A DNA stretch of 32,256 nt. It comes from Candidatus Woesearchaeota archaeon (GTDB lineage: Archaea; Nanobdellota; Nanobdellia; SCGC-AAA011-G17; GW2011-AR20). Position 1 is the first letter of the stretch. The number at the start of each line of letters is the position of its first letter. The DNA lies in NCBI GenBank assembly GCA_018302885.1, contig JAGVZC010000005.1, forward strand, positions 1 to 32,256. Reading direction: 5' to 3'. Under the pieces are notes generated by a model. That model was given only the letters and a program-made list of their open reading frames with translations, made no database searches and was not told where the DNA came from. Both the position numbers and the translations under genes were made by a program. Shown here one piece after another: positions 6,427-23,047 of this stretch.

Positions 6427-7296
6427 TCAATAAATTCTACTCTTCATTCCATCCAATAAGTTAAATGTTTTCAAAAGAGAGACCCCCCTCCCTAAATTAT
6501 ATTTTCCATCAAAATTATGATAACTTTTATTTGCTAAATGATATAATTGTAATATTCCATTTGGGTTCATTTTAAATATTTTTAAGATCACTAGTTCTTC
6601 TTTTGTTATTTCCAAACCCCTTTGTATTCCATCAAAATCAAAGGTTTCATCCAATAAAACTTCATCTTTTTCTTGATACACAAAAGCAGGAAATTGTTCT
6701 TTCCTTTTATCTCTAGTTTCTAAACCAATTATAATGCTTACTGGGTTATATTTAGAGGTTCTTCTGTTGATATTAGTACTTTTTAGGTCTGACTTTGAAG
6801 GCCTGGTTCTTTCAATCTCAATATCCTCAAATCCATCTTCAATAAAGTTAAAAAGTGGGTGAGTATGAAACTCAAGTATCATTTGATGACTTGGATCACA
6901 AGATAGATTGTCTTTATCTTCATAATGTTTAAAATAATCCATTCTGGTTTTTAATCCTTTGGATATTGGGAAAGGCATGCTTGATGTTATATTTCTCTTT
7001 TTAAGTTCATAATGTAGTTTACCCAATTCAAGAACATTTAATTCTCTAAGTTCTCTCCCAAACCATTTTCTAGACATCTCTTTTTCTCTTGCATGCCCTA
7101 TTAGTTTATCTTTGCAACCTATAATAATATCATCAAAAAAAATACCAACTTCAGAATCATAGAACATATGAAATCCAGTTTCAAATCCGGTTTCTTGAGT
7201 TATTCTTATAGATTTATCTACTCCAGCTACGAATGCTTCATTATTTAATTCTGCCAAGTAATCTTCTATAGTTTTAAAATTTTTTTGTCTTTCCAT
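6427..7296 (-). CDS. Hypothetical protein, possibly a divergent JAB/MPN (JAMM) metalloprotease-like domain
   Basis: QETGFETGF (candidate Glu), EFHTHP (HxH) and PSKSD (SxxD) occur in JAMM order. The HxH-to-SxxD spacer is much longer than canonical, so the call is weak. Confidence 0.35.
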   Translation of the reverse strand: MERQKNFKTIEDYLAELNNEAFVAGVDKSIRITQETGFETGFHMFYDSEVGIFFDDIIIGCKDKLIGHAREKEMSRKWFGRELRELNVLELGKLHYELKKRNITSSMPFPISKGLKTRMDYFKHYEDKDNLSCDPSHQMILEFHTHPLFNFIEDGFEDIEIERTRPSKSDLKSTNINRRTSKYNPVSIIIGLETRDKRKEQFPAFVYQEKDEVLLDETFDFDGIQRGLEITKEELVILKIFKMNPNGILQLYHLANKSYHNFDGKYNLGRGVSLLKTFNLLDGMKSRIY

Positions 7297-7407: not shown

Positions 7408-8127
7408 ATGTATGAACAAGAATTAAATGAAATTGGACTAAGCAATAATGAGATAAAAATATATTTGGCTTTATTGAAATCGGGATTATTGAATCCCACC
7501 CAATTGGCAGAAAAAACAGGTCTGCATAGATCTTATGTTTATGACACCTTAGAAAGATTATTGGAAAAAGGAATAATAAATACCCTTCTAGTAAATAATA
7601 AAAAGAATTATCAGGCAGTTGACCCAAAAATACTAAGAGAAATATTTGAATTAAAAATTAAGCAATTAGATAGGATTATCCCAGAATTATCCTCATTATT
7701 TGAATCCAAAAATGAAGGGACAAAAATTGAGCTTCATAAAGGAAAGAATGTCTATCTGACATTAATCAAAGATTTGACTGCAAATTTGAGAAAAAATGAT
7801 GTGGTATTTATTATTGGCGCAAATGAAGAAGTGTTAGAAACTATTGAACCAATTTATCTTAAGCAGTATTTTAGCATAATAAAAGAAAAAAATGTAAAAG
7901 AAAGAGTAATAATTGCTGATGGAAGTAAACGGTTCAAAGAAAGAAATATAGAGTACAAAAATTTAAATAGGAATTATCTTGGGGATACCACAATTGTAAT
8001 TTATCAAAAGAAAGTATTCTTATTTACATGGGATGACCCTTATTATCTTATTTTAATTAACAGCAGAAAAATTGTTGAATCTTACAAAAAACAGTTTAAT
8101 TTATTATGGAAGATTGCTAAAAAATGA
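7408..8127 (+). CDS. TrmB-family winged-helix transcriptional regulator
   Basis: The N-terminus LSNNEIKIYLALLKSGLLNPTQLAEKTGLHRSYVYDTLERLLEKGII is typical of the TrmB HTH. A coiled linker and a C-terminal domain follow. Confidence 0.75.
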   Translation: MYEQELNEIGLSNNEIKIYLALLKSGLLNPTQLAEKTGLHRSYVYDTLERLLEKGIINTLLVNNKKNYQAVDPKILREIFELKIKQLDRIIPELSSLFESKNEGTKIELHKGKNVYLTLIKDLTANLRKNDVVFIIGANEEVLETIEPIYLKQYFSIIKEKNVKERVIIADGSKRFKERNIEYKNLNRNYLGDTTIVIYQKKVFLFTWDDPYYLILINSRKIVESYKKQFNLLWKIAKK

Positions 8128-8927
8128 ACAAAGAGGAAGTGATTAAAGAATTAAGAATAATTACAAAAGAAAGGGGCAAGTCCCCCACTAGAAGAAGTAT
8201 TCCATTAAAATTATATTATCACTGCATTAAACAATTTAAATATTTCAATGAAGCAAAAAAACAAGCAGGATTAAAATTATACAATAATAGATTCCTTGAG
8301 TTACCCCCTAGTTCTTATATTCAGGATAAAGATTTAGTTAGACTAGTCAGTTTTTTAACTTTTGATGGTCATTTATATAAAAGTTTAAACGCAATAATAT
8401 TAATATCTAAGTATAAAAATGAACTAAAAAAATATGAGAAATTAATTAAAAATAAATTTGGATTAAATGGAAATTACAGATTAAAAGCAGATGGTTTTGG
8501 TGAATCTTTTAATTATAGAGTTTACAGTAAAGAATTAGGTAAACTTCTAAATAAATTTGGAACTCCGAGAGGGGATAAGATGTTAACTCCTTTTGATGTT
8601 CCTAATTGGATTAAAGAAAACAAAGAATTCACTAGAGAATACTTAAAAGTTGCATTTTATTGCGAAGGGTGTAAATATAAAACCTCAGAAAATACAGAAA
8701 TAATACAATTTAATCTAAATAAAAGTGAAGAGTTACTAGAAGATGGTTTAAAATTCATTGAATCTTTAATTTATTTGCTTAAAGAGTTTAATATTGAAAC
8801 AACAAAAACATGGATTATGAAAGGGAATTTAAGAAAAAAGGATGGAAAAACAACAAAAATGATAAAATTTAAGATAAAGGCTAATAGTATCAATAAGTTT
8901 ATAAAAGAGATTGGTTGGATTAAATAA
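8124..8927 (+). CDS. Free-standing LAGLIDADG-type endonuclease-like protein with an N-terminal homing-endonuclease-associated repeat (HEAR)-like module
   Basis: The N-terminal KEEVIKELRIITKERGKSPTRRSI...FKYFNEAKKQAGL resembles HEAR. There are two LAGLIDADG-like blocks, LVSFLTFDGHLY and YLKVAFYCEGCKY. It shares an ATGA overlap with the TrmB-like gene. Confidence 0.55.
   Translation: MNKEEVIKELRIITKERGKSPTRRSIPLKLYYHCIKQFKYFNEAKKQAGLKLYNNRFLELPPSSYIQDKDLVRLVSFLTFDGHLYKSLNAIILISKYKNELKKYEKLIKNKFGLNGNYRLKADGFGESFNYRVYSKELGKLLNKFGTPRGDKMLTPFDVPNWIKENKEFTREYLKVAFYCEGCKYKTSENTEIIQFNLNKSEELLEDGLKFIESLIYLLKEFNIETTKTWIMKGNLRKKDGKTTKMIKFKIKANSINKFIKEIGWIK
8920..8927 (+). promoter_or_regulatory. TATA-like TTAAATAA, centred about 26 nt upstream of G8950
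   Basis: The spacing matches a transcript starting at GGGACTA (8950). The box overlaps the stop codon of the preceding gene. Confidence 0.35.
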
Positions 8928-8949
8928 ATGAGGTTAAAGCCCATAAGAT

Positions 8950-9042
8950 GGGACTAAGAAATTAGCATTTAGTTATGGGCTAACTTGGCTATGCTTCGAG
9001 GTTTGGGACCTCGCGATCTGGGTTCAAATCCCAGTAGCCCCA
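8950..9042 (+). tRNA. tRNA-Pro (anticodon TGG); positions 8-73 are contiguous at 8976..9042 and the 5' acceptor strand is displaced or absent
   Basis: I folded it by hand as: U8 G9; D stem GGCU/UGCU; D loop AACUUGGCUA; U26; anticodon stem CGAGG/CCUCG; loop UUUGGGA; variable loop CGAU; T stem CUGGG/CCCAG; T loop UUCAAAU; 3' acceptor UAGCCCC; discriminator A. The 7 nt before U8 do not pair. The best 5' strand is GGGACUA at 8950..8956, which lies 19 nt upstream and leaves one A-C mismatch. Confidence 0.6.
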
Positions 9043-10027: not shown

Positions 10028-10047
10028 TATAAAACAAAATAGAAATA

Positions 10048-10055
10048 TTTATATA
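10048..10055 (+). promoter_or_regulatory. TATA box TTTATATA, about 28 nt upstream of the sepF ATG (10080)
   Basis: The motif and spacing support the internal ATG rather than the ORF-track start at 10017. Confidence 0.45.
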
Positions 10056-10079
10056 ATTTGTTGTTATTTAAAAAGTAAA

Positions 10080-10454
10080 ATGAGAAATTGGTTATCAAAA
10101 ATGATGGGTAAAAGTGATTTGCCTGAAGAGTTGAATGATGATTATGTAGAGATTGATACTAATGTGACAAAATCTGGCAAGACTAAGATTAGTGTAAGGC
10201 CTTTTATTGTTCAGGACTTTGGGGATATCAAACCAATACTGGACTGTTTAAGGGAAGGAATGACTATTTCTTTGATTAATATTAAACAGTTAAAAGAAAG
10301 GGACATTGTAGAATTAAAGAGAGCTGTAAACAAATTAAAGAAAACATGCGACGCTATTGAAGGCGATATTGCTGGATTTGGAGAGGACTGGATTGTTGTA
10401 ACTCCAAGCTTTGCACAGATTCACAGAGCTAACACTGAAGAAGTAGAAGAATAG
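10080..10454 (+). CDS. sepF: Cell division protein SepF (DUF552-type FtsZ anchor)
   Basis: Contains YVEIDTN...ISVRPFIVQDFGDIKPILDCLREGMTISLINIKQL...CDAIEGDIAGFGEDWIVVTP, matching the SepF core. I chose the start at MRNWLSK. Confidence 0.75.
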   Translation: MRNWLSKMMGKSDLPEELNDDYVEIDTNVTKSGKTKISVRPFIVQDFGDIKPILDCLREGMTISLINIKQLKERDIVELKRAVNKLKKTCDAIEGDIAGFGEDWIVVTPSFAQIHRANTEEVEE

Positions 10455-14625: not shown

Positions 14626-14646
14626 GAGAATTTCCAAGTTAATATT

Positions 14647-14914
14647 GTAGACTAGGCTGGCGGGTTAATCCTCCGCTGCAACTGTAAATGGATTCTGACA
14701 GAGCTGAAACTCAGGGAGAGGTTTAGACTTCAAGTATTAGTCTTGATTCGGACTGTGAAACCTTGTCCTGTAGGGTTGGTCTATATGTGAATCAGGTCAG
14801 ACCTTGACGGGAGCAGCCTTAAGCGTGTAGATTGGCGCTTATAGGGAAGCAGGGAGGAGAAAGTTTCAAGGTAGCTGATATTTGTTTTCTATATCAATTT
14901 CTGGGTGCGTCTAC
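14647..14914 (+). ncRNA. ffs: Signal recognition particle RNA (7S/SRP RNA)
   Basis: A GC-enriched island with no ORF. The 5' GTAGAC pairs with GTCTAC at the 3' end. The 5' motif ACUAGGCUGGCGGG and the helix-8 motif AUCAGGUCAGACCUUGACGGGAGCAGCC resemble the conserved CAGGUC...GGAA...GGAGCAGCC core. The ends are approximate. Confidence 0.8.
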
Positions 14915-14955
14915 ATTAAAACTTTTAAGAAAAGTTTTATAAAAAAAGAAAAAAA

Positions 14956-19129: not shown

Positions 19130-19151
19130 TTCCATTTTACTATTTCTATAT

Positions 19152-19224
19152 GCCTCTGTAGCTCAGTTGGTAGAGCATCGCTTTCATGCGGCGAGGGTCG
19201 AGGGTTCGAATCCCTTCGGAGGCA
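19152..19224 (+). tRNA. tRNA with CAT anticodon (elongator Met, or Ile2 if C34 is modified)
   Basis: A 73-nt canonical cloverleaf: GCCTCTG / TA / GCTC-AGTTGGTA-GAGC / A / TCGCT-TTCATGC-GGCGA / GGGTC / GAGGG-TTCGAAT-CCCTT / CGGAGGC / A. The G1-C72 pair argues against an archaeal initiator. Confidence 0.9.
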
Positions 19225-19228
19225 TTAA

Positions 19229-22516: not shown

Positions 22517-23047
22517 TCAAGGTTTGGTCCAAGCCACATTATAATAGGTTACATCTGATTCTGAATCTACAATTCCAATAAGCAAACTTTTTCTTGTTGA
22601 ATGAGCTACCCTGTTCATTGCACTGAAAGAATGCCATGTTAATCCTTTTGATTCTGAAACTGGAAATAAAATCCATTTTGCATGATCTTCTCCAGGCTTG
22701 ACCCCCCTGTCATAAACCCTGAAATCAGCCCCAAATTTCAATGCTGTTTTTACAATATACCCCCTGTTTCTCATATCCCTGAAAACAATATATCTTTCCA
22801 AAAAATTCTTTTCCTTTTTTGAAGCTTCCCTCATAAATTCATCTTTTTTGATTGATTTTTTTTCCTCTTTAACTGCTAATTTATTTTTTTCAATCAAGTA
22901 AAGGGCCTCAACCAGCATATATTGTATTTTATTATCGATTATTTCACCAAATCTTGATTTAGAATAAAGCTCTTTAGCCTGCCCTTTATTTTCTGCAATT
23001 ACTATCTTACCCAAAAATGAAGCACTAATTTTCTTTTCTGAAACCAT
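22517..23047 (-). CDS. endA: tRNA-splicing (BHB) endonuclease EndA, short homotetramer-size form
   Basis: Contains LVEALYLIEKNKL, YIVFRDMRNRGYIVKTALKFGADFRVYDRG and RVAHSTRKSLLIGIVDSESDVTYYNVAWTKP. It closely parallels Methanocaldococcus EndA, including the Tyr/His/Lys catalytic positions. Confidence 0.9.
   Translation of the reverse strand: MVSEKKISASFLGKIVIAENKGQAKELYSKSRFGEIIDNKIQYMLVEALYLIEKNKLAVKEEKKSIKKDEFMREASKKEKNFLERYIVFRDMRNRGYIVKTALKFGADFRVYDRGVKPGEDHAKWILFPVSESKGLTWHSFSAMNRVAHSTRKSLLIGIVDSESDVTYYNVAWTKP

Follow-up and report, generated by a model that had tools for sequence, protein, structure and literature searches.

The 32,256-nucleotide stretch of DNA analysed here (the window) is contig 11 of a 38-contig, 560 kb metagenome-assembled genome (MAG) of a Candidatus Woesearchaeota archaeon that is 79% complete. 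Between a gene of the LAGLIDADG type and the gene for L37ae, the forward strand carries what is very probably a working, syntenic tRNA-Pro(UGG) gene with a 19-nt intron of the EndA-excised type between nucleotides 3 and 4. From 5' to 3', the locus consists of a 5' leader (8931-8949), exon 1 with nucleotides G1-G3 (8950-8952), the intron ACUAAGAAAUUAGCAUUUA (8953-8971), and exon 2 with tRNA positions 4-73 (8972-9042), all on the forward strand.

Exon 2 is recognised by two independent profiles, and both begin at the same nucleotide. The Rfam tRNA model matches 8972-9038 with 35.3 bits, above its gathering score, as a local match that covers model positions 4-67 only. With nhmmer, a profile of 26 tRNA-Pro genes from relatives aligns its positions 4-74 onto 8972-9042 (E = 3.8e-20). 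In each case, tRNA position 4 falls on 8972. The anticodon UGG lies at 9004-9006 and, as an initial annotation of this DNA had stated, the 3' acceptor strand UAGCCCC is followed by the discriminator A73 at 9042. No CCA is encoded at the 3' end, and a T-run follows 9042. The same annotation described the tRNA body as perfect, which holds for the T arm (CUGGG/CCCAG) and the anticodon arm (CGAGG-UUUGGGA-CCUCG) but not for the D stem, where a G10.U25 pair and a U13.U22 mismatch are present. Both of these also occur in relatives and are thus normal for the clade.

The 5' side of the gene is disrupted less extensively than was first supposed. The break had been placed at position 7/8 because a 5' strand GGGGCUA was demanded directly before U8 and a U5.G68 wobble pair was overlooked. 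In the Rfam alignment, GUUA (8972-8975) already pairs with UAGC (9035-9038), with one U.G pair. Four acceptor pairs out of seven thus adjoin the body directly, and the displaced part is G1-G3 only. Several accompanying observations were reproduced: the 100 nt upstream contain no GGGG[CT]T[AG], GGGACUA is present at 8950-8956, ATGGGACTAA and ATGGGCTAA form a direct repeat, and AGCCCAUAA (8938-8946) pairs perfectly over 9 nt with UUAUGGGCU (8973-8981). ARAGORN, the use of which had been proposed as a check, made no tRNA call at 8938-9042 on the unspliced sequence.

When 8952 is joined to 8972 in silico (8950-8952 plus 8972-9042), a 74-nt tRNA results, which ARAGORN then calls as tRNA-Pro(UGG). 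Its acceptor stem, GGGGUUA/UAGCCCC, has seven of seven pairs, and the canonical cloverleaf is restored. The predicted 5' end of the spliced, mature molecule is GGGGUUAUGG, and its predicted start read across the 8952-8972 junction is GGGGUUAUGGGCUAAC.

The two splice sites lie in a strict bulge-helix-bulge (BHB) motif, the geometry of which was taken from PMC4090602 as a 4-bp central helix between two 3-nt bulges that hold the splice sites. The cut was taken after the second base of each bulge; this is not stated directly in PMC4090602, and it was adopted because that source puts the first two anticodon bases in the central helix. At this locus, the central helix is formed by GAUG (8947-8950) and CAUU (8966-8969) with four of four pairs, its 5' strand consisting of leader nucleotides 8947-8949 together with G1, which closes it. 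The opposite-strand bulges are GGA (8951-8953), cut after the second G, and UAG (8970-8972), cut after the A, so that the 5' bulge starts with G2 and G3. Within the intron, the bulge base A8953 is followed by a hairpin, CUAA-GAAA-UUAG (8954-8965), with an inner helix of 4 bp, then by the central strand CAUU (8966-8969) and the bulge bases UA (8970-8971). The outer helix is made by the leader and exon 2: 8938-8946 pairs with 8973-8981 over 9 bp and, past a 2-nt bulge, AGGUU (8931-8935) pairs with AACUU (8982-8986) over a further 5 bp. The initial annotation had reported that no BHB could be built around the 19-nt spacer, yet the 9-bp pairing it described is the outer helix of one, and the locus has the complete helix-bulge-helix-bulge-helix (hBHBh') arrangement of two 3-nt bulges, a 4-bp helix and flanking helices.

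By the BHB scorer (central 4/4, outer 9, inner 4), this structure is the only candidate of such quality at the locus. The full BHB structure has a predicted energy of -16.0 kcal/mol, 0.5 kcal/mol from the minimum free energy (MFE) of -16.5. The outer and inner helices also appear in the MFE and centroid folds, both when the region is folded in isolation and when the whole precursor is used. Motifs with an outer helix of at least 9 bp and an inner helix of at least 4 bp were found 14 times in 1.12 Mb at 50 intron lengths, or with a chance of approximately 2.5e-7 per fixed splice-site pair, and the sites are here fixed independently by restoration of the acceptor stem. A permissive scan (outer at least 6, inner at least 2) returned 807 hits in this 32% G+C genome, and only the strict thresholds discriminate.

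The leader, which is supported by the MFE and centroid folds, the list of pairs and covariation in 12 loci (see below), must be transcribed if this motif is to form. A probable TATA box of the tRNA gene, TTTATAAA, lies at 8899-8906 on the forward strand, within the last codons of the upstream LAGLIDADG open reading frame (ORF). In intron-less relatives, TTTATAAA ends 23-26 nt ahead of G1; in loci with a 3/4 intron (the tRNA-Pro described here, and tRNA-Phe of this same genome, G000, and of G009), its end is 22-24 nt from the point where the leader helix starts. Given this spacing of 22-26 nt, transcription probably starts near 8930, at the 5' end of the leader helix. The TTAAATAA box (8920-8927), from which a start had been predicted previously, is present but is probably not the promoter in use: the spacing of TTTATAAA fits instead, and a start near 8950 would remove the leader needed by the BHB. 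At the predicted start lies GAGGUUA (8930-8936, forward strand), a degenerate copy of the acceptor strand that matches GGGGUUA at six of seven positions and may be left over from an ancestral 5' end or serve in the precursor as a stand-in strand. Similar degenerate acceptor copies are found just after the LAGLIDADG stop codon in loci L143, L145 and L153, and that of L153, GAGGCUG, could pair seven of seven with its 3' strand.

The genome encodes both a splicing endonuclease and an RtcB-type ligase. EndA (176 aa) is encoded within the window at 22517-23047 on the reverse strand (PF01974, 94.8 bits; PDB 3IEY_A, 1.6e-35; 1A79, 1.8e-32), and RtcB (574 bits) and RNase P RNA (131.5 bits) are also present in the genome. 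No second EndA subunit or paralogue was found in the 79%-complete assembly with Pfam, phmmer or a hidden Markov model (HMM) from 80 relatives, run over all ORFs; one weak additional HMM hit was a low-complexity neighbouring ORF and was rejected. Aligned with the Methanocaldococcus jannaschii alpha4 enzyme (1A79), EndA shows just one gap, of one residue, near residue 60; the catalytic loop, in which the Nanoarchaeum equitans alpha subunit has 6 extra residues, aligns without any, and the Y..H..K context is conserved by eye. With a single gene in the range of about 170-180 aa, the catalytic Tyr/His/Lys and no beta subunit, it looks like a plain alpha4 enzyme. Enzymes of this type are described as strict for the BHB. 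The pairing of a presumed alpha4 EndA with a strict motif in an unusual place agrees with the endonuclease reading the BHB and not the tRNA body, and fits the view that position is irrelevant if the BHB is canonical.

These features suggest the following pathway. Transcription from about 8930, directed by the TTTATAAA box, would give a leader of about 20 nt, of which 8931-8946 would pair with 8973-8986 of exon 2, the sequence that later forms acceptor positions 5-7, U8, G9 and the D arm. Together with the central helix and the intron hairpin, the leader helix would complete the strict helix-bulge-helix-bulge-helix, which EndA would cut between 8952 and 8953 and between 8971 and 8972, and RtcB would join the exons. 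The acceptor stem GGGGUUA/UAGCCCC would then form and give RNase P its substrate, the leader would be cut off by RNase P at G8950, and CCA would be added post-transcriptionally. An intron after nucleotide 3 makes the 5' leader part of the splicing substrate, and this implies an obligatory order: splicing would have to precede RNase P cleavage, because no 7-bp acceptor stem exists before splicing and no BHB could form after loss of the leader.

Comparison with relatives places the gene in a conserved context. It is the syntenic tRNA-Pro(UGG) gene found upstream of L37ae throughout the order (L11 ... tRNA-Pro - L37ae) and an orthologue of intron-less genes at this site, and the 5' strand is contiguous in 21 tRNA-Pro(UGG) loci of relatives. 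The closest match to the exons, which is 90% identical and intron-less (L002/L114), has the L11 gene, TTTATAAA and then GGGGTTATGGG... in this order. The same-genus genome G001 (L031, C5 at about 10040-10160) likewise has a contiguous 5' strand and no 3/4 intron; its tRNA-Pro(UGG) contains another intron of about 30 nt at 53/54, the junction of T stem and T loop, with an inner helix of 9 bp. The 53/54 type of tRNA-Pro intron was also seen in L145, L149 and L154, which belong to other families, and its recurrence across families indicates that intron positions turn over quickly within one orthologous gene. No 3/4 intron was found in tRNA-Pro of the 60 nearest genomes, and scanning metagenomes with exon 2 yielded an intron-less allele and nothing else. 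Judged from the orthologues at the L11/L37ae site that do not have it, the 3/4 intron is polymorphic through gain or loss and was not fixed ancestrally.

Homologous introns were found by searching the order (240 genomes) with the ORF upstream of the tRNA. In G142, G061, G046, G097, G055 and G078, tRNA-Pro(UGG) is also cut after GGG, by introns of 18-31 nt. Their central helices are GAUG/CAUU or GAUG/CAUC, except for UAUG/CAUA in G055, and the bulge pattern is unchanged. The inner helices vary (CUAA/UUAG, CUUAUU/AAUAAG, CUC/GAG, UUAUC/GAUAA, UUCCU/AGGAA and CUAAAA/UUUUAG), and each leader follows exon 2 of its own lineage. Additionally, the same 3/4 module is present in tRNA-Phe(GAA) of G000, G009, G085, G079 and G092.

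Covariation was assessed in 12 loci of the 3/4 type (seven tRNA-Pro and five tRNA-Phe, from 11 genomes of the same archaeal order). The alignment was anchored on the splice sites and BHB geometry, with the intron loops cut out; an earlier 16-sequence alignment that included four introns of the 4/5 type was dropped because MAFFT had moved these by one column. In this motif-anchored alignment, the helices are kept by compensatory change: 83.9% of cells are paired, compared to 27.8-45.0% in controls with the 3' partners slid by 1-3 columns, and the central and inner helices are 100% and 97% paired, respectively. Changes on both sides occur in 12 of 16 pairs, and none of 500 shuffles matches the observed covariation score. 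The percentages of paired cells are inflated, since the BHB registers were picked by pairing score; the slid controls and the both-sided changes are less touched by this bias and are more meaningful. This inflation weighs against a working gene with a 3/4 intron, as do several other points. The covariation derives from homologous introns of other genomes and not from this exact intron, of which no second copy was found. An alpha4-like EndA would have to act on a BHB in the acceptor stem, although the strictness described for such enzymes fits the motif. Finally, further tRNA-Pro genes could exist, given the completeness of the assembly.

Three other explanations were considered, and the best of them is still very unlikely. 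It holds that the sequence is what remains of a tRNA-Pro gene, nonfunctional and either truncated at its 5' end or decaying, at the junction with an inserted block composed of the LAGLIDADG gene, a TrmB-like gene and the ORF at 6427. The LAGLIDADG ORF is indeed an indel relative to same-genus G001 and others, the degenerate acceptor copy GAGGUUA lies at 8930-8936, and a functional copy could be located elsewhere when 79% of the genome is represented. However, the body retains every arm and is scored as a tRNA, a strict BHB lies exactly where a perfect stem is restored, the architecture recurs with compensatory changes in 11 other loci, and the promoter is positioned to transcribe the leader. 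Moreover, the gene is the syntenic tRNA-Pro(UGG) adjoining L37ae, and searches of the assembly with ARAGORN, Rfam and the tRNA-Pro profile found no other tRNA-Pro. The earlier suggestion of a truncated remnant is thus contradicted by synteny, by the lack of another tRNA-Pro in these searches, by the covariation of the BHB and by the position of the promoter.

Even slimmer is the chance of an intron at position 7/8, as the initial annotation had proposed, with GGGACUA (8950-8956) as exon 1 and removal of 8957-8975. ARAGORN also accepts the 7/8 join as tRNA-Pro(UGG), and the piece removed would likewise be 19 nt long. Nevertheless, this join leaves an A4.C69 mismatch in the acceptor stem and its BHB candidate has an outer helix of 0 and an inner helix of 4, while the homologous loci are all cut after GGG and the two profiles begin at position 4. 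The proposal of an intron was therefore sound, but its position is 3/4, where the perfect stem and the strict hBHBh' motif coincide. The idea of a split tRNA, the 5' acceptor strand of which would come from another locus and be trans-spliced as in N. equitans, has almost no probability: the closest similarity of EndA is to the N. equitans alpha subunit and leader complementarity is a feature of split tRNAs (PMC4090602), but everything needed is present in cis, 19 nt upstream, the leader complements its own exon 2 and not a foreign trailer, no beta subunit or second EndA was found, and a profile search of the genome returned no other tRNA-Pro-like piece. The locus does not consist of separate genes with complementary leader and trailer, and with both exons in cis a split tRNA need not be invoked.

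The favoured reading, a tRNA-Pro(UGG) gene with an EndA-type intron at 3/4, has precedents in other archaea. Non-canonical BHB introns at position 3/4 have been described in tRNAs of Thermoproteales (Sugahara et al. 2008, in the summary given by Yoshihisa 2014, PMC4090602). Like these, the present intron would be spliced by proteins, is defined by a BHB, occupies the same extreme position in the acceptor stem, has a length within the usual 11-129 nt, and requires a BHB that uses sequence upstream of the mature 5' end. In contrast, its host is a DPANN/Woesearchaeota-type MAG and not a member of the Crenarchaeota, the EndA is alpha4-like and not an (alpha-beta)2 enzyme with a specific loop, and the intron belongs to a family that is common to tRNA-Pro and tRNA-Phe and lies beside a LAGLIDADG gene. 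It thus adds a new lineage to a rare but already known kind of intron, and a homing-endonuclease-like gene directly precedes it here.

According to the genome surveys of Kaneta et al. 2018 (PMC5829648) and Fujishima et al. 2011 (PMC3239211), DPANN archaea, including Woesearchaeota and Pacearchaeota, have many tRNAs with non-canonical or multiple introns, and the incomplete tRNA sets predicted for DPANN genomes have been ascribed to undetected disrupted genes (PMC5829648). The locus described here is such a gene and was missed by ARAGORN. It is the sole tRNA-Pro found in the assembly and the reader of CCA, the most frequent proline codon of the genome, and genes of this kind probably account for part of the incomplete tRNA sets of DPANN genomes. 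In their accounts of disrupted tRNAs, both surveys give counts per genome and do not deal with this locus, with the 3/4 position in DPANN or with a BHB built from a leader. Those accounts also link tRNA disruption to the EndA loop inserts L2 and L3 (PMC5829648, PMC3239211). The present EndA differs in this respect, as it aligns with M. jannaschii alpha4 without a gap where N. equitans has its extra residues. A genome with many non-canonical introns, some with short flanking helices, and yet with an EndA that has no gap in the catalytic loop relative to alpha4, may bear on the published link.

The split tRNAs of N. equitans and Caldivirga maquilingensis are a further parallel. There, a leader or trailer outside the mature tRNA builds the BHB that is cut by EndA, and in both systems RNA outside the tRNA body is obligatory for the splicing substrate. 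Here, both exons lie on one transcript and the leader pairs with exon 2 of the same molecule, with no need for trans-splicing.

The gene immediately upstream (8124-8927, forward strand) is a free-standing double-LAGLIDADG, homing-endonuclease-like gene with an N-terminal HEAR repeat, identified by Pfam, AlphaFold2 (AF2) and Foldseek. It encodes a single chain and ends 3 nt before the predicted transcription start of the tRNA. The Pfam matches of the ORF are HNH_repeat (25.5 bits) and LAGLIDADG_3 (17.2 bits), and LAGLIDADG_3 (PF14528) is matched in 17 of 22 homologues. The two LAGLIDADG motifs read LTFDGHL and FYCEGCK, and D81 and E181 are invariant in the 22 homologues. A PDB sequence search with the ORF gave no match, and the relation to known enzymes came from the fold search: the AF2 model (mean pLDDT 93) matched the endonuclease domain of the TliVMA intein (E = 4e-10), I-Tsp061I, I-SceI and I-DmoI, with E values from 4e-10 to 1e-6. 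The protein has the alpha-beta-beta-alpha-beta-beta-alpha topology and acidic residues of the double-LAGLIDADG fold.

Homologues of this gene occupy one fixed site, between L11 (or the TrmB-like gene) and the tRNA-Pro(UGG)-L37ae pair, in at least seven families of the order. Their presence is patchy, and some copies are truncated or have stop codons. The TATA box of the tRNA lies within conserved C-terminal codons of the LAGLIDADG gene (..KFIKEIGWxK, followed by the stop codon). Acceptor-stem introns are present in 9 of 14 tRNA-Pro(UGG) loci with the gene and in 0 of 21 without it (Fisher's exact test, 2.8e-5, uncorrected for phylogeny). Exceptions occur in both directions, as five loci have the gene but no intron, and three tRNA-Phe loci have the intron but no gene. 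A paralogue of 35% identity precedes the tRNA-Phe gene with a 3/4 intron elsewhere in this genome (C24:1944-2567). The Pro and Phe introns have a GGAUGGG ... (A/G)(G/A)CAU module in common, and each lies beside a paralogous LAGLIDADG gene. Between G000 and G142, the identity of the LAGLIDADG proteins is 61%, at least as high as that of L37ae (54%) and L11 (57%). More widely, members of the LAGLIDADG family (loci L143-L155 and L169) are found immediately upstream of tRNA genes; most of these are for Pro(UGG) and Phe(GAA), and others are for Tyr, Cys and Leu.

The fixed site with patchy and degenerate copies, the distribution of introns in 9 of 14 versus 0 of 21 loci, the shared module and the 61% identity fit a tentative explanation, which we consider possible but somewhat less than an even prospect: the LAGLIDADG gene, promoter, leader, GGG and 3/4 intron could together form one mobile cassette, a BHB counterpart of collaborative homing. 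The putative endonuclease may then cut intron-less tRNA genes that start with GGG near their 5' end, and repair from the carrier allele may transfer the leader and intron along with the endonuclease gene. By splitting the target site, the intron may protect the carrier. Such a cassette may have moved between tRNA-Pro(UGG) and tRNA-Phe(GAA), and from one family of the order to another. In many genomes, introns of this family and a LAGLIDADG gene are found together at the same site, which offers a lead on how archaeal tRNA introns are gained; if true, the cassette would give a concrete mechanism for the gain of non-canonical BHB introns.

In collaborative homing, the nearest analogue known, a free-standing endonuclease gene lies beside an intron-containing gene, as for F-CphI and psbA of cyanophages (PMC6083498) and for mobE and I-TevIII of T4 (PMC2790892). 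The present locus is alike in that a homing-endonuclease-like gene adjoins a gene with an intron close to it, the two tend to occur together across genomes, with the exceptions given above, and some copies of the endonuclease gene are degenerate. The known cases, however, concern self-splicing group I introns of phages and enzymes of the GIY-YIG, HNH or EndoVII type, whereas the present case combines a BHB intron, in a tRNA gene of an archaeal cell, with a putative enzyme of the LAGLIDADG type. No published description of an association between LAGLIDADG genes and tRNA introns was found in the literature searched. A structural comparison is provided by I-DmoI and I-Tsp061I, LAGLIDADG endonucleases that are encoded inside archaeal rRNA BHB introns. 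They have the same fold (Foldseek E values of 2e-8 to 3e-7) and the same class of intron, but their genes lie within the intron that is mobilised, while the gene described here lies outside and upstream of an intron of 19 nt.

The tRNA-Pro is not the only disrupted tRNA of this genome, and the others turn canonical once a BHB candidate is removed. A second 3/4 intron is present in the tRNA-Phe(GAA) gene downstream of the LAGLIDADG paralogue (C24:2620-2734; L115/L116), where GGG is followed by the intron AUUAAAAACGUUAA and then by ACGG. Its central helix is AACG/CGUU, and its leader-body helix is 5 bp by the scorer, with approximately 7 bp more by eye after a 1-nt bulge; the Rfam match again covers model positions 4-67 only. 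In another genome, G092, the tRNA-Phe locus L159 has a tandem duplication ahead of the gene that takes in the leader, exon 1 and the initial part of the 3/4 intron, and ...TTCTTCTGTTTTAACTGAGTTATTGGATGGGTCTCAAAAGA occurs twice. A tRNA-Ala(UGC) gene (C29:2100-2191, reverse strand) has a 26-nt intron in the T loop, with an outer helix of 5 and an inner helix of 7. The loci C3:11928-12042, C25:4444-4566 and C19:4161-4279 comprise two multi-intron tRNA-Leu genes and an initiator-like tRNA, which has two introns by eye and is mislabelled Pro(agg) by ARAGORN.

Tools for tRNA prediction gave a further unusual assignment in relatives, as ARAGORN calls tRNA-Pro with anticodon AGG (A34) in L013 (G001), L015, L021 and L027; tRNAs with A34 are unusual in Archaea. 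In the remainder of the window, an ORF of 289 aa (6427-7296, reverse strand) lies between the L11 gene and the TrmB-like gene; it has no Pfam match and is absent from the corresponding site of G001. An archaeal signal recognition particle (SRP) RNA (14645-14916; 109.7 bits) and an uninterrupted tRNA-Met(CAU) (19151-19225) are both ordinary.

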